From Rhizomicrobium sp. (GTDB lineage Bacteria > Pseudomonadota > Alphaproteobacteria > Micropepsales > Micropepsaceae): a DNA stretch of 64,000 nt. Every line of letters starts with the position of its first letter. Position 1 is the first letter of the stretch. Under the pieces are notes generated by a model. That model was not told the DNA's origin, did no database searches, and worked only from the letters and a program-made list of their open reading frames with translations. Where the stretch lies: the NCBI GenBank assembly GCA_037200865.1, contig JBBCIC010000009.1:153365-217364 (forward strand). Reading direction: 5' to 3'. The position numbers and the translations under genes are program-made. This document shows positions 54,062 to 64,000 of this stretch, piece after piece.

Positions 54062-54874
54062 CTACTCGTCCTCCGAGCGCAGGTATGCCTCGACGCGCCG
54101 GATCAGGCGCTCCCGCTGGGCAGGCGCCACCCCCCGCGAGGAGGTGGACACGGGCGAGGGGCAGATATGGCTCATCGCCGCTGTCAGTGCCGCGGGGGAC
54201 ATGCCGGCGAGCCGTGCATATTCGGACTGCAAGGCCGCATTGACCGCACGCGGCCGCTCCGGATTGTCGACGACTTCCGGGGCGAGCTCGGAAAGGCTGA
54301 TATGGCAGCACCCAAGGTCCAAGGCGGCGGACGCTTGGACGGCACCGCTCCAGTCGATGATCCTCGGACCATCCGCCGTCATGATCACGTTGCCGGGGTG
54401 AAGGTCGCAATGGCATAGGCGGTTCCCCGGCGGCAGGCGCTCGATCAGGGAGAGGATACCGGTGCCGATGTGCTTCGGAAGCATTCCGCCGTAGAGCCGC
54501 AAACTGCCGTCCATCCAGTCGCGCAAGGAGGGTACGTCCGGTGGCGGGGGCGTCTTGTGAACGGAGATACAGACCGTCGCGAGGATCGCCCCCGTCTGCT
54601 CGAACGTTGTGGCGCCGCTCCGCGAAAGCTGCAGCAGGGTCGGTCCGTCGAAGCGCGTCAGCACGATGCCGAAGCGCCCCTCCAAGTTCACCTCGTCGAA
54701 CACCTCCGGCGCCGGGACGCCGGCAGCGAAGGCGGCACGGGTCATTCGCGCCTCGTGCCGGCTGACCCGCCGCGGGACGCCGGCCTTAAACAGCTTCAGG
54801 GCTTGACCGGGCGCCCAGGCGTGGACGTCGGCAAAGGCGCCTTCGCCGATCTTCTCTCCGAGGAATCCCCGCAT
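54062..54874 (-). CDS. Aminoglycoside phosphotransferase/choline kinase-like protein
   Basis: IGEGAFADV, LKLF, HCDLHPGNV (Brenner motif) and IIDW. Confidence 0.85.
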   Translation of the reverse strand: MRGFLGEKIGEGAFADVHAWAPGQALKLFKAGVPRRVSRHEARMTRAAFAAGVPAPEVFDEVNLEGRFGIVLTRFDGPTLLQLSRSGATTFEQTGAILATVCISVHKTPPPPDVPSLRDWMDGSLRLYGGMLPKHIGTGILSLIERLPPGNRLCHCDLHPGNVIMTADGPRIIDWSGAVQASAALDLGCCHISLSELAPEVVDNPERPRAVNAALQSEYARLAGMSPAALTAAMSHICPSPVSTSSRGVAPAQRERLIRRVEAYLRSEDE

Positions 54875-55091: not shown

Positions 55092-55809
55092 CTAGATGTG
55101 GAGCTTGGCGTTGCGCTTGCACAAGGCCAGGAGCGCAGTGCGGTTATGGATGTGCAGGCCGGTGTGATTGATCTCGATCCAGTTCTCGCGCCGCCAGCGT
55201 TCGAGCTTGCGGTTCACCGCTTCGCGCGACGCGCCGATATGATGGGCGATCTCCGAACTGATTGTAGATGATCCGGCCGTTGACCGATTCGATGAGCACG
55301 AAGCGCGCCAGCCGCTTGCCCAGCTCCATGGGCGAGGTCCGCTCGACCAGCGCATCGGTCTCGCGCAGCCGTTTCGTCAGGACGCGCACCAGCGCCAGCG
55401 CCGCTTCCGGTTCCGCCAGCAGGGCGTCGTGGATCGGCGCGCGGTCGATCCGCAGCAGCTCGCATTTGCGCGTGGCGTTGGCGTTGGTGACGCGCGGCGC
55501 GCCGTCCAGCGCCCCCATTTCGCCGATCACCGACCCGGCGCCGATGCGCGCCAGCCACACCGCGCGTCCGTCCAGGCCGGGTATGGTGATCTCGATCTCG
55601 CCCGCGAACAGCGCGAAGGCGGCGTCGGAGCGGTCGCCGTGGCCGAACAGCTTCTGGCCCTTTTCGAGGTGGAGGATCGTTCCCGATTCCGCCAGCACCA
55701 GCCGGCGGGCGGGCGAGAGCGCGGCGAACACGCTGTCGCGCGCCAGGGCGGCCGCGATTTTCGCTGGTTTTCCACCATCCGCCTTGGTGAACGTCGAATC
55801 CCCACTCAT
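55092..55809 (-). CDS. Crp/Fnr family transcriptional regulator (one +1 frameshift at ~55256)
   Basis: cNMP-binding domain (IGEMGALDGAPRVTNA) in one frame and HTH (EIAHHIGASREAVNRKL) in another. Removing one A at 55256-57 gives a 238-aa protein. Confidence 0.88.
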
Positions 55810-55873
55810 CGCGTTGAAATTAACAATCGCGCATCGCGGTGCAAGGGACCGGATCGCCGCGTCGCAGGTCGAA

Positions 55874-55920
55874 ATACCCATATTGGGTATATGTAGACGC
55901 TTCCCGAGAGGAAGGTCTAC
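55874..55920. promoter_or_regulatory. Two adjacent inverted repeats in the divergent promoter region
   Basis: ATACCCA-TAT-TGGGTAT (55874-55890) and GTAGAC.CTTCC-N5-GGAAG-GTCTAC (55893-55920). Confidence 0.45.
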
Positions 55921-56039
55921 CGTTCGGCTACCATCGATTTTTCGAGTGTGGCGGTTTTGCGCTGTGATCGACTTGTCTTGACGGTTCGGGCGGGCCGGCC
56001 CAAATGTTGCGCGTCTTATCCATCGGGGGAGTTCCGCTT

Positions 56040-57320
56040 ATGAACAGTTCCGGATTCAGCAGGGGCAAGCTGCTCCTTGGCGCCGCCGCTCTTGCGGTCG
56101 TCGCCGGCGGCGTCCTCATCGGAAGCCAGTACTATCCGGCCAAGCCGGGCCACACGTCCGGCACCATCGTGCCGATGGAACGCTATCATGAAGGTCAGGT
56201 CCAGCAGGGTGACGTCGTCACCGGCGACACCCAGATCCCGAACATGATGCAGACCGACTCGTTCCAGGATCTGACCAAGAACACCCAGGCCGCGTCGCAA
56301 GCCGCCTCGCAGGCCGCCAGCCAGGCCGCCAGCCAGGCTGCTTCGCAAGCCGCGGCGCTCGCCGCGTCGCAGGCCGCAAGCCAGTCGGCAAGCCACGCCG
56401 CCAGCCAGGCCGCGTCGCTCGCCGCGTCGCAGGCCGCACTCACCGCCGCCTCGCACGCTGCCTCGCAAGCCGCCTCGGCCGCTTCGCAGGCGGCGAGCGG
56501 CGCCAGCGCCGCCAATCAGGCCGCGCTGAATGCAGCATCGCATGCGGCATCGCAGGCCGCGGCTCTGGCCGCCAGCGCGGCGTCCTCGCAGGCCGCGGCT
56601 TTGGCGGCTTCCCAGGCGGCGTCTCAGGCGGCGGCTCGCGCGGCGTCTCAGGCGGCGGCGCTCGCCGCCTCCCAGGCGGCGTCGCAGGCTGCTTCCCACG
56701 CCGCTTCGCAAGCTGCGGCGCTCGCCGCCTCGCAGGCTGCCTCGCACGCCTCATCTCAGGCCGCCTCGCAGGCGGCGTCGCTCGCCGCTTCGCAGGCTGC
56801 GTCGCATGCAGCTTCCCAGGCCGCCTCTCAGGCCGCGTCGCAAGCCGCGGCGCTTGCCGCCTCCCAGGCCGCTTCGCAGGCTGCGTCTCAAGCGGCCTCG
56901 CAGGCCGCCAGCCAGGCCGCGGCGGCCCAGGCCGCCTTGAATGCTGCGTCGCAGGCGGCGTCAGCAGCGGCCTCTTCGCAGGCCGCATCGGCCTCGGCGG
57001 CGTCCTTCGCGGCGTCGCAGGCGGCCTTGACCGCCGCTTCGCAGGCGGCGTCGCAGGCCGCTTCGCAGGCTGCTTCCCACGCCGCGTCGCAAGCCGCCGC
57101 TCTCGCGGCGTCCCAGGCGGCGAGCCAGGCTGCTTCGCAGGCGGCTTCTCAGGCCGCTTCCCAGGCCGCGTCGCAGGCCGCCGCGCTCGCGGCGTCCCAG
57201 GCGGCGAGCCAAGCGGCTTCGCAGGCTGCCTCGCAAGCTGCATCCCAGGCCGCGTCGCAGGCTGCTTCCCAAGCCGCGAGCGCCGCTGCCGCGTCCCAGG
57301 CGGCTTCGCAGCAACACTAA
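56040..57320 (+). CDS. 426-aa N-terminally anchored protein with ~340-aa (AASQ)n low-complexity repeat
   Basis: GGGGGAG SD before ATG at 56040; hydrophobic segment at residues 11-28; ~55-aa unique spacer; then AASQ/AAAL/AASH tetrads to the C-terminus. Confidence 0.9.
   Translation: MNSSGFSRGKLLLGAAALAVVAGGVLIGSQYYPAKPGHTSGTIVPMERYHEGQVQQGDVVTGDTQIPNMMQTDSFQDLTKNTQAASQAASQAASQAASQAASQAAALAASQAASQSASHAASQAASLAASQAALTAASHAASQAASAASQAASGASAANQAALNAASHAASQAAALAASAASSQAAALAASQAASQAAARAASQAAALAASQAASQAASHAASQAAALAASQAASHASSQAASQAASLAASQAASHAASQAASQAASQAAALAASQAASQAASQAASQAASQAAAAQAALNAASQAASAAASSQAASASAASFAASQAALTAASQAASQAASQAASHAASQAAALAASQAASQAASQAASQAASQAASQAAALAASQAASQAASQAASQAASQAASQAASQAASAAAASQAASQQH
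56289..57311 (+). repeat. Degenerate 12-nt tandem repeat (GCN GCN TCN CAR) encoding AASQ
   Basis: Visible 12-nt periodicity with heavy third-position variation. Confidence 0.95.
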
Positions 57321-57336
57321 GACAAGAACGATCCAC

Positions 57337-57375
57337 AACAACCACCGTCCCCTGGACGGTGGTTGTTTCTTTTTG
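57337..57375 (+). terminator. Intrinsic terminator after the repeat gene
   Basis: Perfect 14-bp stem AACAACCACCGTCC-CCT-GGACGGTGGTTGTT followed by TCTTTTT. Confidence 0.85.
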
Positions 57376-57418
57376 TGTCTAGATGCCAATCTGAGTCGTA
57401 GGGCATCGGGGGTCGATC

Positions 57419-60376
57419 GTGGATTTCACAAGGCTGCGCCGTGTGGCGCTTTGCCTGGGCATATTGGTGTTCGCGCGCGGACAGGCGCTATCGCCGTCGG
57501 TGGGGCTCAGCCGGATCGAGACCAAGGATCTGGAGCTCCTCTACTACGATCCCATCCAGACCTATCTGACGCCCTATGCGGCGCGCTCCTACGAGAACTC
57601 GTTCGCCTTCCAGCGCCGGATGTTCGACTGGACGCCGTTCGACCGTCCCGTCGTCCTCCCTGCGCGACCTGTCGGACAACGGCCGCGCCACGGTGCGCGC
57701 CGCCCCCAGCAATGCGCTCACCCTCGACGTGGCGCCGATCTACATCCCGTTCGAGACCTTCAGCCCGGGCGAGCGCTTCTTCACCCTGATGAACCACGAG
57801 CTCGTCCACATCGCGACGATGGACGTCGCCGACGACTCGGACAACTGGTGGCGCAAGGTGTTCCACGGCAAGCCGCTGCCGATCGTCGACCACCCCGAAT
57901 CGATCCTCTACAACTACCTCGCCGCGCCGCGCACCACGGTGCCGCGCTGGTATCTCGAAGGCAGCGCCGTGTTCATGGAGACCTGGATGGCCGGCGGCCT
58001 CGGCCGCGCCCAGGGCGCCTATGACGAGATGGTGTTCCGCGCCAAGGTCCGCGACAACGCCGAATTCTACACCCCGCTGGGGCTGGAGGCGGAAGGCAAC
58101 TCGATCGACTTCCAGGTCGGCGCCAACGACTACCTCTACGGCACACGGTTCGATTCCTATCTCGCCCTGACCTACGGACCGCAAAAGGTCATCGACTGGC
58201 TCAAGCGCCAGCAAGGCAGCGAGCCCTATTACGCCAGCGACTTCGAGCGGGTGTTCGGCAAGCCGCTGGACGACGCCTGGGCCGACTGGATCAAGTGGGA
58301 GCACGACTTCCAGGCCAAGAACCTCAAGGCCGTGCAGCAATATCCGGTGACGCCGACCAAGCCGCTCACCGACCACGCCCTGGGCTCGGTGTCGCGTACC
58401 TATTACGACGCCAAGACCGACAGCCTGATCGCCGGCTTCCGCGCCCCCGGCGTGATCGCGAATATCGGCATGATCTCGCTGAAGGACGGCAGCATCCGCA
58501 AGCTGACCAACCTGAAAGGCCCGGCGCTCTACCGCGTCACCCTCGCTCGCCTATGACGAGACGGAAAACAAGGTCTACTACACCACCGACAACAACGACT
58601 ACCGCGACCTGATGGAGATCGACCTCGCCGGCGGCGTGACGAAGATGCTGATTCACGACGGCCGCGCCGGCGATATCGCGCTCAATCCGGTGGATCACTC
58701 GCTGTGGGGGGTGCGGCCGCTCAACGGTCTGGCGTCGCTGGTCCGCGTCGGGCCCGAGCACGACAGTTGGAAGCTGGTCCACGCCTTTCCCTATGGGCGT
58801 ATCCTGTTCGACCTCGACATCTCGCCCCGACGGCCAATACCTCGCCGCCTCGATCGGCGAGATCAACGGCGACCAGCGGATCGGGGTGTTCCGCACCGCC
58901 GAACTCCAGGCCGGCATCGTCAACGAGATCGCCACCTTGAAGCGCGATCCGGCGGTGCCGGAGGGCGGCGTGTTCTCGCCGGACGGCAAGTACCTCTACG
59001 CCACCGCCTATTACACGGGCGTGTCGAACATCTACCGGCTCGAACTGGCGACCGGCAAGATCGAGGCGGTCAGCAACGCGGTCACCGGCTTCTTCCGGCC
59101 GCTGCCGATGACCGACGGCTCGCTGATCGCCTATGAATACACCGGCCAGGGGTTTCTTCCGGTGCGCATCGCGCCCAAGCCGCTCGATGATCTGGGCAAT
59201 GTCAGCTTCCTCGGCACCGAGATCGCGAACAAATATCCCATCGTGAAGAGCTGGGCGGTCGGGCCGCCGTCGAAGATCCCGCTGGAATCGATGATCACCG
59301 GGCAGGGCGCTTATATCCCGCGCGACGAGTTGCGCCTGATGTCGCTCTATCCCACGGTCATGGGCTACAAGGGCCATGCCGCGCTCGGCCTTTACGCCGA
59401 GCTCGAAGATCCGCTCGGCTACAACGAGCTCACCGCAAACGTCTCCTACTCGCCGGCCGGCAACATCACCGCCGGCGAGCAGTTCCACGCCGACGTCGCC
59501 TACCGCACGCTCTACTGGCACGTGCGCTATTGGCACAACAGCGCGAATTTCTACGACCTGTTCGGACCCGTCGACCGCAGCCGCAAGGGCGACGCGCTGC
59601 TCGGCGGTTACAACACGGTGCTGATCTACGATATGCCGCGCCGCCTCGACTTCTCCGCCGACCTCGAACTCTATTCCGGCCTCGACACGCTGCCGGGGGC
59701 GCAAAACGTGGCGACTGCGGCGCCGAGCCTGGGCACGCTGCGCCTGGCGCTCAACTATGACAACATCGACAAGTCGCTGGGCGCGGTGGACTACGAGGAA
59801 GGCTATCACCTGCGCGGCGTGCTGCGTTCCGACTACACGCGCGGGACCTTCTTCCCCAAGGCGCGGCTGGATGCGAGCGCCGGCCTGGCGCTGCCGTGGA
59901 AGCATTCTTCGCTCTGGGGCTATGCCTCGGTGGGGTACGGCACCGGCGACCCGAATGACGGGCTCGACTATTTCTACTTCGGCTCCTTCGGCAACAACTA
60001 TGTCGACGACGGGGAGGTCAAGCGCTACCGCGAGTTCGACAGCTTCCCCGGCTTCGACATCGACGCGATCAGTGCCAAGAGCTTCGTCAAGGCGCTCGGC
60101 GAATGGAATTTCCCGCCCGTGCGCTTCAACGACGTCGGTTCGGCCGGATTCTATTTGAGCTCGGTCCGCCCGGCGCTGTTCGCCGGCGTGCTGTGGGGCG
60201 ACCCGGGCCTTTCCGCGTTGCACACTTACGAGACCGTGGGCTTCCAGCTCGACTGGAACTTCACCGTCGCGGTGCGCCTGCCGATGACGCTGTCGGTCGG
60301 CTATGCCCGGGGGTTCAGCGACAGCAGCATCACCGGCCGCCACGACGAGATCCTGGTGTCGCTCAAGATTCTCTGA
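57419..60376 (+). CDS. ~984-aa outer-membrane protein: HExxH metallopeptidase-like domain + beta-propeller + C-terminal beta-barrel (Omp85-like); three +1 frameshifts
   Basis: ORF pieces 57419-, 57576-, 58612- and 58793- join after removing one C at 57658-60, 58540-42 and 58825-28. Motifs: NHELVH, PRWYLEGSAVFME, PD40-like SPDGQY/FSPDGKY, and amphipathic beta-strands at the C-terminus. Confidence 0.8.
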
Positions 60377-60392
60377 AGGACGCGAGGCGCCC

Positions 60393-61409
60393 ATGGCGAC
60401 GCAATTTCTCATCGAAGCGCCCATCGCCCTGGTGCCGGTTCTCGTCTTCCTCGTGACGCTGCACCTTTTCGATTCCTATCGCCTCACCAGCCTTGCCGAA
60501 ATGGCCGAGACGATGATCACCGGCGCGGTGCTGGCGGCGGCGGCTTATTTCGCCAACGGCTATCTGCTTGGCGCGCTCGGCATCGACTACGCGGTCTACA
60601 GCCATGTCGTCGGGCCGGCGGTCGAGGAAGCGCTCAAGGCCGCGGCGCTGGTCGTGTTCTTCGCGCGCAACCGCATCGGCTTCATGATCGACGCGCTGAT
60701 CATGGGCTTCGCCGTCGGCACGGGGTTCGGGGTCTTCGAGAACCTCTATTATCTCTATGCCTTCCAGGACGCGGGCCTGGGCGACTGGATTATCCGCGGC
60801 TTCGGCACCGCGATCCTGCATGGCGGCGCGACCGCGATCTTCGCGGTGCTGTCGCAATCGCTGATCGAGAAGCGCGGCGCCCTGCGGCCCTGGCACTTCG
60901 TTCCCGGCCTCGCCATCGCGATCGCCGCGCATGTCGCCTACAACCTGCTCCAGGACACGCCCTTGATCGCGGCGCTGGCGATCCTCGTCGGCCTGCCGCC
61001 GCTGTTCTATCTCGTCTTCACCAAGAGCGAGCACGCCGTGCACCAATGGCTGGTGCACGATTATGCCTCGCACGAGCAGCTCCTGGCCGACATCGAATCG
61101 GGGCGTTTCCTGCACACCGAGGCCGGGCGGTTCATCCTCAGCCTGACCCGCAAGTTCAGCAAGGCGGTGGTCGAGGACATCTTCGCCTATCTGAAGCTCC
61201 ACACCCAACTCGTACTGCTGGCCGAGAAGCTCAGCCTGGCGCGCGAAAAGGGCGAATCGCTGGCGCCGGTCCCCGGCGTCCGCGACGACCTCAAGCGGCT
61301 GAAGGAGCTCGAACGGCGCATCGGCCGCTCGGCGATGATGGCGCTATGGCCGCATCTGCATTTCAGTCGGCGCGAGTTGTGGGAGCTCCACGAGATGCAC
61401 GGCCTCTGA
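60393..61409 (+). CDS. prsW: PrsW-family glutamic-type intramembrane protease
   Basis: GPAVEEALK, GFGVFEN, LHGGAT and AHVAYN motifs with multiple TMs; GAGG SD before ATG at 60393. Confidence 0.85.
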   Translation: MATQFLIEAPIALVPVLVFLVTLHLFDSYRLTSLAEMAETMITGAVLAAAAYFANGYLLGALGIDYAVYSHVVGPAVEEALKAAALVVFFARNRIGFMIDALIMGFAVGTGFGVFENLYYLYAFQDAGLGDWIIRGFGTAILHGGATAIFAVLSQSLIEKRGALRPWHFVPGLAIAIAAHVAYNLLQDTPLIAALAILVGLPPLFYLVFTKSEHAVHQWLVHDYASHEQLLADIESGRFLHTEAGRFILSLTRKFSKAVVEDIFAYLKLHTQLVLLAEKLSLAREKGESLAPVPGVRDDLKRLKELERRIGRSAMMALWPHLHFSRRELWELHEMHGL

Positions 61410-61428
61410 CGGCGGCAGGACTGCCGCG

Positions 61429-64000
61429 TCAGAAGCCCATGCGGAACTGCGCCCCGACCGACACCGACAGCGGCGTCTCGACGAAGCCCGGCGGGTTGAG
61501 GTCGACCAAGCCGAAGGCGGCGACCTCGCCGCGGCCTTCGAGGACGGTGAGGCCGTACAGCGCCTCCATCCGGTATTCGCGCTTGCCGGCGATGTTCCAG
61601 GCCTGCGTCACCAGGCCCAGCGCGCCGGTGTCGCGGTCGATCACCTCGATCGAGGTGTAGTTCAGCGCGCCGCTTTCGACGTGCAGCGGCTGGGTGACCG
61701 ACAGGCGCAGGGAGTCGAGTTCGGCGAACAGGCCCGTCTTGGCCGCGACGAATTCGAAGGCGGTCGATTGCAGGCCGTTCTCGTCGAGCGTCAGGCCGGA
61801 CGGCACCGATCGCGCCATGGTCGTGTGGGCAAGCGTCGCCGAAACCGGACAGCGTCCAGCCGCCGGACAACGCCGCCGTCAGGCCCAGCGTGGTGCCTTC
61901 GGTGCGCGCGCCGTTGGCGAGCGCGAAGCTGCCGCTGCCCTGCGCGCCGAGCAGGCCGTCGGCCTCGTTCAGCAGCGTGTAGGACGCGTTGAGCGCCAGA
62001 CCCTTGGCAAGCGTGTAGTCGATGCCGGCGACCGATGCCGAGGCCCTTGCGGGGGCGAGCGGAACCGTCTGCAAGGGCCCGAAGGTCGGATCGTAGTACA
62101 GATGGTCGTCCGTCTTCTGGCTGAAACCCAGGCTGACATGGAGGTCGCGGGTGACCGCGATGCCGCCGCTGGCATAAGCGCCGCCCGAGGCGAAGCCGAG
62201 CACCGGATTGACGCCGCCGGTCTCGGGATCGAAGTCGGTGCGCAGGCCAAAGCCGCTCGTCGCCATCAGGGCATAGGCGCCGCTGCCTTCGCCCAGGCGC
62301 ATGTCGATGCCGGCCTCGCGGTTGGAGGCGACGAACTCGGCATGGAACGGCCCTTCGCCGCCGCGCGTCTCGTCGGGCGAAGACGGCGTCGCCACCATCT
62401 CCAGCGCCCAGGCGCCGTCGCGCAGCGGCATGGACTGCGAGCCGAAGTTCAGCGTGTTCACGCCGTGCGCCCAGTCGATCAGGCGCTGATAGAGATAAGT
62501 CTGGAATGGATTGGTGTTGCCGTTCACGCGCTGGTCCTTGCCGGCGAGCAGCGAGCTCAGCGGGATCGTGAAGTCGCGATAGGTCGAGCCGATCGACTCG
62601 AAGGCCACGACATAGGCGCTGCGCTGCTGCCACAGATTGAGCTGGCCGGGATTGAGGACGGCGGATTTGAGGCTCGACGGCGACCAGTTCGCGAACAGCG
62701 GCGTGGTGGTCTGTTTGCCGTTATAGGTGTTGGGCTGATAGACGGTGAGCTTGTTGAAATCGAGCGGCGACTGCGACGCCTCGATGTCGAGCTCGCCCCA
62801 ACCATAGACGGGGTCGACGCCCGGCGCGCCCAGATCCTTCGCCGAGCGGAAGATGATCTGCGCCGTTTCCTCGGCATGTTGCTGCAGCCACGGCCAGCGG
62901 TCCTGCAGCAGGGCGACCGCGCCCGTCACCAGCGGCGCCGCGAACGAGGTGCCGCTCATCCGCGTGACGCCGCCATGGTTGTCGGAGACCAGGATGAGCT
63001 CGCCCGGCGCCACGACGAAGCGGTATTTGAGCTTGTTCTGCTCCAGGCAAAGGCCGAGCAGCGTGAAGCAGGATTCGCCCGGGGTGTTGGAGAACGGCGA
63101 GATCACGCCGGTCGGGCCGACCGAGCCGACCACGATCAGGTTGTTGGGCGCTTCGAGGCCGAGCAGCCACGGCAACGTTCTGCGTCTGCTTGACGCCTTC
63201 ATTGCCGGCTGCCTTGACGATGACGAGGCTGTCCTTGCGGCTGCTGAGCAGCGGACCGCTCAGGATATTGACCCATTCGTTCGACACCGTCGTGCCCGGC
63301 ACGCCGAGCGAGGCGTTCACGACATGGGCGCCCGAATCGTACAGCTTGGCGATGCCGGAGGCGACGTCGTTCCAGCTCGCAGTGCCGCTGGCGTCGAACG
63401 GATTGTAGAGATGGACCTCGGCGTTGGGGTCGACGCCCATCACGCCCTGGCCGTCATGCTCGGCCGCGATCAGGCTGGCGACGGCGGCGCCGTGGTCGTT
63501 CACGTAGTATTTGTAGCCGCCGACGAATTTGAGCCTGTCGACATTGGCGCCGTCCGCGCTCACCGACGAGTCGAGGATGCCGACGATGGCGCGGCCCTCG
63601 CCGCCCTGGATCTGCGTCAGCGACGGCGACCAGTGCACCGCCGGCATCCACCAGTCGACATGGTCGACGCCGGTGAAGTTCATCAGCCCGTCATACCAGT
63701 TCAGGAAGAAGAACGAGCGCGTCGCCGCATCGGTGCCGGCGAGCGAGGCCGGATCGTTGGGGTCGATGCCGTATTTCGCCAGCATGTCGTTGGCGAAGCC
63801 GTCGGCGAAGCTCTTATGGGTGTATTTGCCGACCGCCGGGCTCCAGAACGCCGCGGCCTTGCCGAGGAAGCTGCGGATCTGCGATTGCAGGCTGGAATAG
63901 TCGGTGGCGTTCGCGGCCTGGAGTTTCGTCCAGGTGTCGTTGATCGCGCCCCATTGCGGGCCGGCGGTCTCCCAATAGGGTCCGACCGTCCCCCAGAAGG
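61429..64000 (-). CDS. S8 subtilisin-like serine protease with C-terminal beta-barrel-like domain; 5' end outside the window; two +1 frameshifts
   Basis: Triad VGILDSS / NDHGAAVAS / SGTSFAAP, oxyanion AAGN, ending VGAQFRMGF. Frames join after removing one A at 63174-75 and one at 61842-44. Confidence 0.88.

Follow-up and report, generated by a model that had tools for sequence, protein, structure and literature searches.

In a 64,000-nucleotide stretch of Rhizomicrobium sp. DNA (the window; G000:C9:153365-217364, where G000 is its genome, 85% complete and recovered from a wood-decay metagenome), we analyzed three genes encoding a membrane-anchored Ala/Ser/Gln repeat protein (the cargo), a predicted outer-membrane protein with a peptidase domain, a propeller and an Omp85-type barrel (the barrel protein), and an intramembrane protease of the PrsW family. 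Gene neighborhoods of relatives indicate that cargo, barrel protein and PrsW almost certainly act as one unit. As judged from the aligned sequences, the constant part of the cargo is not its (AASQ)n repeat but a leader (transmembrane helix, G-T-I, RY..Q..DVxL), which an earlier note on this DNA had missed. The best reading, in which we place modest confidence, is a cleave-and-export sorting system, with sigma feedback where an anti-sigma factor is present. All five genes that the earlier note had joined in one export system (a Crp/Fnr regulator, the repeat protein, the barrel protein, PrsW and an S8 protease) were found at its coordinates.

Conservation and components of the three-gene unit

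Two profiles were used to collect loci, one built from close barrels and run on the Genome Taxonomy Database (GTDB), the other built from more distant barrels and run on metagenomes; from each we took the best 80 matches. A leader-bearing cargo gene adjoins the barrel gene in 64/64 GTDB and 41/42 metagenome loci with at least 2.2 kb upstream, and PrsW does so in 71/72 and 48/50 loci with at least 1.1 kb downstream. Where the flanks are long, 49/50 and 17/18 loci contain all three genes. The conserved unit of repeat protein, barrel and PrsW that the earlier note had proposed is thus borne out. Gene order varies, with PrsW upstream in several loci and the cargo downstream in one (L177), and two loci (L104, L167) carry two cargo genes each. 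The Bacteroidales locus L101 holds every gene, and the system occurs in four named genomes that are not metagenome-assembled: Sphingomonas chungangi, Croceicoccus ponticola, Sphingomonas sp. URHD0057 and Haliea sp. E17. Barrel or cargo homologues named from Cloacimonetes, Thiomargarita and Thermoanaerobaculia are known without gene context. One locus titled Binatia (L027) was not counted as another phylum, as its phylum draw shared genomes with the gammaproteobacterial draw. A tree was built in a quick version that served only to choose queries. G000 itself holds one PrsW, one barrel and one leader.

The closest named homologues of the barrel protein are from Rhizomicrobium. In G000 its gene is in four pieces, which match intact 984-residue homologues at 81-90%. 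The genes for Crp, the barrel protein and S8 are interrupted by six single extra bases (55256, 57658, 58540, 58825, 61842 and 63174). None of these bases is present in short-read contigs from the sample itself, and at two sites the base is also missing from another sample of the study; therefore, the frameshifts are assembly errors and a pseudogene reading was rejected. RNA contigs span parts of the cargo 5' end, the barrel gene and prsW and say nothing on expression level.

An intact homologue, P0003, was modeled with a mean predicted local distance difference test (pLDDT) score of 79.6 and a predicted template modeling score of 0.79. Gluzincin metallopeptidases are recognized by HExxH with a downstream Glu ligand, and the barrel protein carries both in its sequence: H126, E127, H130, E180 and Y238 of this domain are invariant in 30 and in 84 sequences. 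Residues 311-566 superpose on TolB (1c5k; Z 22.5, root-mean-square deviation 2.8, 239 residues aligned) and the barrel on Deinococcus BamA (8xnb; Z 19.4, deviation 4.0, 285 aligned), with 16-17 long strands at 625-983 as assigned to the model by DSSP. PF19143 matches weakly in 14/42 barrels (best 7.7e-7), the first member falling below the curated cut-off, and a PDB sequence search with the barrel profile gave chance matches only. Between propeller and barrel there is a linker of only ~40 residues, and no POTRA domain matched in Pfam. Omp85 superfamily proteins of the BamA/TamA type have a 16-stranded barrel and, according to an excerpt of PMC13067283, between one and seven POTRA domains. Two homologues, P0149 and P0157, have an extra N-terminal region of ~270 residues. 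In P0142, an open reading frame (ORF) of 1365 residues, PrsW stands in front of a signal-peptide-like stretch and a whole barrel protein, a possible fusion or read-through.

PrsW scores 62.9 bits on PF13367 against a cut-off of 23.5, and its motifs (E78-E79-x2-K82, F112-x3-E116-N117, H143, H180) are 99-100% conserved in 130 sequences. The equivalog of Bacillus type, NF033739, gave 26.5 bits where 225 are required.

A leader shared by exchangeable cargos and its anti-sigma counterpart

The cargo starts at the ATG at 56040, preceded by a G-rich Shine-Dalgarno sequence. A single hydrophobic helix at residues 11-29 is followed by a unique segment that extends to about residue 82, and then by the repeat domain. 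The last 344 residues include 182 Ala, 75 Ser and 57 Gln. The 50 AASQ units are encoded by 29 different DNA 12-mers, indicating selection on the protein. No Pfam family matched the cargo in a Pfam scan.

In 107 leaders we found the same order: a basic N-terminus, the transmembrane helix, PP, then the conserved residues, present at G 97%, T 91%, I 78%, A 78%, R 81%, Y 91%, Q 92%, D 100%, V 90% and L 89%. The domains behind the leader are very different, namely AASQ, AASN and AANN runs, repeats of 6, 7, 9, 10, 11, 12 and 19 residues, and non-repeat helical domains. Among 126 cargo ORFs, 50 have a 10/20-residue period, 38 a 9/18-residue period and 11 an Ala-rich 4/8-residue period, the rest being 10 with other periods, 16 non-repeat and 1 short. 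An AlphaFold model of a 10-residue-repeat cargo (L064) is a chain of helices, mostly of 7-9 residues (mean pLDDT 76.5), and the leader is disordered when that cargo is folded alone. Structure searches found no counterpart of this model (Foldseek without matches at E<=0.001, VIA at best Z 4.5), which does not imply a new fold.

Several cargos depart from this pattern. The L128:3-620 cargo has a beta-type 9-residue repeat behind the common leader, and L145 has a leader of signal-peptide type, resembling a signal peptidase substrate. Genome G488 (L209:11619-11945, L210:12041-12352) has two barrel copies, each behind a lipoprotein cargo of ~100 residues that keeps the start of the leader motif, with PrsW and the sigma pair at only one of them. 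Two cargo ORFs (L008:8103, L017:7850) run upstream in frame into a helix-turn-helix-like region, possibly a second kind of regulator fusion.

The earlier note had suggested a search with the unique segment; as a single sequence this leader gave zero matches, and profiles were required. The leader profile A2 matched 0/400 drawn Pseudomonadota genomes, which indicates that the system is rare. It also matched 0/40 genomes with barrel relatives, but this search is weak, since it lacked a positive control and failed to detect the lipoprotein cargos of G488, which are short. Viral contigs gave no matches. Atlas matches were all below 0.9, some clusters carrying STI1/DP labels on 10-33% of members, a lead only.

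Outside Alphaproteobacteria the operon, by its gene content, gains a pair of an extracytoplasmic function (ECF) sigma factor and an anti-sigma factor. Upstream, 26/31 metagenome loci and 6/61 GTDB loci have an ECF sigma gene, usually followed by a single-pass anti-sigma gene; the six GTDB loci are all gammaproteobacterial. The best NCBIfam match of the sigma factor is SigW, below cut-off, and zf-HC2 was weak in 4 of 27 cases. The motif G[TS][MILVF] stands 3-26 residues past the transmembrane helix in 97/108 leaders and in 24/28 stand-alone anti-sigmas, where downstream windows gave an expectation of 2.6. An hhalign comparison of the leader and anti-sigma profiles aligns them at this motif only (E 5e-4, probability 32%). 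Moreover, 15/126 cargo ORFs carry an in-frame fusion to the cytoplasmic domain of the anti-sigma; the 14 analyzable fusions, by inspection and with no control, have an internal ATG and a purine-rich run just before the transmembrane helix. Genes for a GAF-SpoIIE phosphatase, an RsbW-like kinase and STAS proteins recur beside the operon in gammaproteobacterial and Bacteroidales-like loci (L081:5644-7733, L078, L080, L071, L114, L167).

Proposed cleavage, docking and export

In the proposed mechanism the cargo would be inserted by Sec and held in the inner membrane by an uncleaved anchor. PrsW would cut it at the Gly-Thr motif ~10 residues outside the membrane. Its leader, now free, is predicted to bind the Omp85 protein at the peptidase/propeller face, and the barrel of that protein may carry the cargo domain on to the cell surface by passage or display, possibly with trimming. 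In gammaproteobacterial, Bacteroidales and many further loci the same PrsW would also cut the cognate anti-sigma at the same motif, and since one protease would cut both, cargo processing and operon transcription would be coupled. In the alphaproteobacterium of the window the sigma pair is absent, and the promoter is likely under the divergent Crp. We consider cleavage of the cargo by PrsW probable, and its passage through the barrel somewhat favored. Trimming by the gluzincin domain is conceivable, though we lean against it, and that the AASQ helix makes a surface coat or fiber seems rather doubtful.

PrsW is the site-1 protease of RsiW, as excerpts of PMC10202637 and PMC3482391 describe, so the common juxtamembrane motif is best read as a PrsW site. 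A cognate anti-sigma was not found in the 85% complete G000, and anti-sigma family scores were at most 27 bits in four alphaproteobacterial genomes versus 214 in Haliea, the positive control. Despite this, G000 and four other alphaproteobacteria keep PrsW with all its motifs. The cargo is therefore a likely PrsW substrate in G000, as the earlier note had supposed. It has only ~10 cytoplasmic residues; thus, a released cytoplasmic domain cannot be the output of its cleavage.

The same site could be cut by another enzyme. Signal peptidase I might free the cargo at small-x-Gly; the target of PrsW would then be the anti-sigma, the remaining anchor or some other partner, and the leader would go to the barrel as before. 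Signal peptidase I sites follow the -3/-1 rule, and the leaders fit it, with T, S, A or V often at -3 and Gly at -1 in 97%. Cargos of lipoprotein and signal-peptide type also exist (L145, L209, L210), and signal peptidases perform site-1 cleavage of RsiV and RsiP (excerpt of PMC10202637). We nevertheless hold this improbable. Helix and site are mostly separated by 10-11 residues (cargos) or 10-19 residues (anti-sigmas), -3 of the anti-sigmas is often L, I or M, and +1/+2 (T, I/M) are conserved, whereas signal peptidase I needs neither such spacing nor L/I/M at -3 nor conserved +1/+2. PrsW is, moreover, kept where no anti-sigma was found. L145, the only locus in which flanks of 10 kb on either side contain no PrsW, has no anti-sigma and, as noted, a leader of signal-peptidase type; we counted this single case in favor of cleavage by PrsW.

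The earlier note had proposed modeling the complexes. We ran ESMFold2 on an L002 barrel protein (956 residues) with 43 leader residues, using alignments from this analysis; the complex-score mark is one reached by 116/157 solved and 2/215 mismatched pairs. The pair scored 0.79 and the best of three controls 0.02; runs agree in at least 95% of contacts, with a partner pLDDT of at least 81. Leader residues 4-39 are predicted to lie along peptidase domain, propeller and propeller-barrel linker, the interface beginning at the Thr after the conserved Gly. The leader is thus predicted to dock on the periplasmic domains of the barrel protein.

Docking of this kind would also suit a trans-envelope sensing or tether device that exports nothing. 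The Omp85 protein would serve as receptor for anchored or released cargo, and binding or loss of binding would decide whether PrsW reaches Gly-Thr and hence whether sigma is activated, much as in FecA-FecR-FecI; in Alphaproteobacteria the device would be a periplasmic tether or remnant. The frequency of ECF sigma genes upstream (26/31 metagenome, 6/61 GTDB loci), the 15 anti-sigma::cargo fusions, RsbU/RsbV/RsbW-type genes near gammaproteobacterial and Bacteroidales loci, the known role of PrsW in site-1 cleavage of RsiW (PMC10202637, in excerpt) and a predicted docking that avoids the peptidase active site agree with such a device. Against it, 55/61 GTDB loci without a sigma pair keep all three genes, strongly conserved, with a cargo lacking a cytoplasmic domain. 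In addition, the separate and second cargo genes (L104, L167), the internal starts in the fusions and the terminator suggest that cargo is made in excess. A terminator scan found 6 hairpins versus 4.3 in shuffles and is thus no evidence alone; a similar hairpin lies 3' of the cargo gene in L250, L251 and L252. Export is favored over signaling because of these sigma-less loci, the exchangeable cargos behind a fixed leader and the terminator, and we rate the sensing device as rather unlikely.

The barrel protein might instead be a periplasm-facing protease that takes cargo by its leader and degrades it, for quality control or as a timer, its barrel a mere anchor. The invariant gluzincin residues, the lack of POTRA and the distant peptidase-Omp85 relatives without cargo fit this, as does the loop-6 motif, FPG here and VRG[FY] in BamA. 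Degradation leaves unexplained why the cargo domain is long, under strong selection and often exchanged, and barrel positions are invariant across 42 diverse members; we consider it very improbable.

Several observations weigh against cleavage and export. The loci were chosen as best matches and are related and non-independent. L175 has no cargo gene within 4.5 kb upstream; no PrsW was seen at L058 (1.5 kb downstream) or L170 (2.1 kb upstream); and L209, with its short lipoprotein cargo, has no adjacent PrsW. Neither cargo nor PrsW was found at 27 distant gammaproteobacterial barrel loci (flanks of ~1.5 kb), at 7 of these re-read with flanks of 6-7 kb, or beside a Vibrio plasmid barrel relative, and a middle-distance barrel clade (Thiomargarita and others, 500-680 bits) is known without gene context. 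Barrel homologues without a repeat-protein neighbor, which the earlier note had named as counter-evidence, thus exist among distant relatives, but the clade itself keeps the neighbor. The x-x-G/T site is also similar to those cut by signal peptidase I. In the model, catalytic H101/E102/H105/E155 are outside the confident contacts, and the interface is about as conserved (0.66) as the periplasmic part is on average (0.64).

Taken further, cleavage and export would define a new class of secretion, a tentative proposal that we put a little short of an even chance: an N-terminal sorting signal of ~45 residues would route structurally unrelated cargos via PrsW and a POTRA-less peptidase/propeller Omp85 protein to the surface, the cargo gene and its anti-sigma being of common origin. 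Given that common origin, a single protease site would couple export load to transcription. If true, a clade of WD40-Omp85 proteins that are catalogued but unstudied would gain its first function and substrate, and PrsW would have a task in Gram-negative bacteria other than cutting anti-sigmas. The short portable leader appears to accept very different cargos and could serve surface display, and the motif common to anti-sigma and cargo, with the natural fusions, suggests a route from a stress-signaling cascade to a protein-sorting pathway.

Known systems, Crp control and neighboring genes

The component families are known, and their combination is undescribed in the literature found. We found no description of the unit; in the part of the ECF re-classification supplement covered (PMC7826278) PrsW appears in two clostridial passages only, and its remainder, like subscription articles, could still affect novelty. 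Homologues of cargo and barrel have only 'hypothetical' or generic names. The WD40-Omp85 subfamily (Heinz & Lithgow 2014, PMC4104836), in excerpt, likewise has a TolB-like propeller N-terminal to an Omp85 barrel, the arrangement of our model. That text proposes a BamA-BamB-like fusion; its available part names no cargo, PrsW or sigma partner and, in the main text, lacks the word 'peptidase', whereas a peptidase domain is present here. General WD40-Omp85 members score at most 223 bits on profile A3 versus >1000 for this clade, with a gap between, and were found in 37/400 gammaproteobacterial genomes.

In Bacillus subtilis sigmaW-RsiW-PrsW (excerpts of PMC10202637 and PMC3482391), PrsW also goes with an ECF sigma factor and a single-pass anti-sigma. 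Here, in contrast, the host is diderm, there is an outer-membrane barrel and a second substrate-like protein has the same motif; the cognate sigma pair is absent from the Alphaproteobacteria here and was not found in G000. In PrsW-dependent polymorphic toxin export (Zhang et al. 2012, PMC3482391, in excerpt), PrsW was likewise proposed to process a variable exported domain, fused N-terminally to toxin domains and mainly in Gram-positives. By contrast, here PrsW stands alone, the cargo is a separate gene with no toxin domain detected, and there is a dedicated Omp85 protein.

The unit also resembles two-partner secretion in having a cargo gene by an Omp85-superfamily barrel and a conserved N-terminal recognition segment with a variable remainder. 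That pathway uses a TPS domain, a beta-helical TpsA cargo and a TpsB with two POTRAs; here there is no POTRA, TPS domain or beta-helix, cargos are mostly helical, an uncleaved anchor has a dedicated protease, and peptidase and propeller would be the receptor. In FecA-FecR-FecI a TonB-dependent transporter contacts the periplasmic part of the anti-sigma, a contact that would also arise in our fused loci; unlike there, the barrel is of Omp85 type, PrsW would be the site-1 protease, and the system would work without sigma in Alphaproteobacteria. Curli and Fap have a beta-forming repeat subunit with a CsgG or FapF pore; no such Pfam matches were found on cargo or barrel, and the barrel is Omp85-like. 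The layout is thus unlike curli, Fap and two-partner secretion, as the earlier note had held.

The divergent Crp gene is present in 9/80 GTDB loci, all Rhizomicrobium-like, and also in L250 and L251. TGTGA-N7-10-TTGAC occurs in 11/67 cargo upstream regions, 10 of them with divergent Crp, and a stricter pattern occurs once in G000, at 55963. We take the geometry at 55963..56007 to resemble a class II CRP promoter. As the pattern tracks Crp and Crp is in so few loci, it is likely that Crp drives the cargo promoter in this alphaproteobacterium, and only locally. The cyclic-nucleotide control of the earlier note thus stands for Rhizomicrobium-like loci but not elsewhere, where an ECF sigma/anti-sigma pair is found. 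The adenylate cyclase that it expected beyond 64000 was not the next gene, which encodes a TPR/histidine kinase. Downstream of prsW in L005:14378-21445 (also L006, L007) lie genes for a mechanosensitive channel with a cyclic-nucleotide-binding domain, a CHASE2 adenylate/guanylate cyclase, which is a possible cyclic-nucleotide source for Crp in those loci, and a CHAT/TPR protein. An inverted repeat at 55892-55919, between Crp and cargo genes, is not conserved in an alignment of relatives, and an aminoglycoside-phosphotransferase-like gene (54062-54874) downstream of crp was not found in any related locus. Table 1 lists the features.

Table 1. The unit and its flanking features, in window coordinates
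Feature	Position	Strand	Remarks
Crp/Fnr regulator	55092..55809	-	divergent; cNMP_binding (cyclic nucleotide) E 8e-15; spurious frameshift 55256
Conserved promoter (putative)	55963..56007	+	TGTGA half-site 55963-55967; TTGAC -35 55978-55982; -10-like hexamer near 56002-56007
Cargo gene, 426 residues, leader and Ala/Ser/Gln repeat domain	56040..57320	+
Cargo transmembrane anchor, residues 11-29	56070..56126	+	mean hydropathy 2.25
S-G-T-I-V motif	56157..56171	+	common to cognate anti-sigmas; putative protease site, most likely Gly41/Thr42
Cargo-specific docking segment RY..Q..DVxxGD..MQTDxF	56178..56264	+	conservation; predicted interface
(AASQ)n repeat domain, 344 residues	56286..57317	+	nearly uncharged; other cargo domains replace it in relatives
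Intrinsic-terminator-like hairpin	57337..57377	+	cargo/barrel intergenic; stem 57337-57367 with T tail
Outer-membrane protein, gluzincin/TolB-like propeller/divergent Omp85 barrel (predicted)	57419..60376	+	HELVH 57795-57809; spurious frameshifts 57658, 58540, 58825
PrsW-family intramembrane glutamic protease	60393..61409	+	C-terminal extension; PF13367 62.9 bits
S8 protease	61429..64000	-	start at 64358, beyond window end; outside system; goes with upstream TPR histidine kinase

The S8 protease, which the earlier note had counted in the system, adjoins the unit in 0/80 GTDB loci (64 with at least 2.5 kb downstream) and is not beside it in the two closest relatives. Within the genus, 26/150 genomes encode it; only 6 of them also have the barrel, in every case on a different contig, and S8 was rejected as a member. 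A TPR kinase gene lies upstream of S8 in 17/19 loci, with one further weak match, and by gene neighborhood the protease belongs to a separate kinase-protease module. The protein, of ~980 residues, has N-terminal 7-residue PF[YW]G repeats and a barrel-like tail, and the TPR histidine kinase-S8 module spans 61429-64000 and runs on to window coordinate ~66640.

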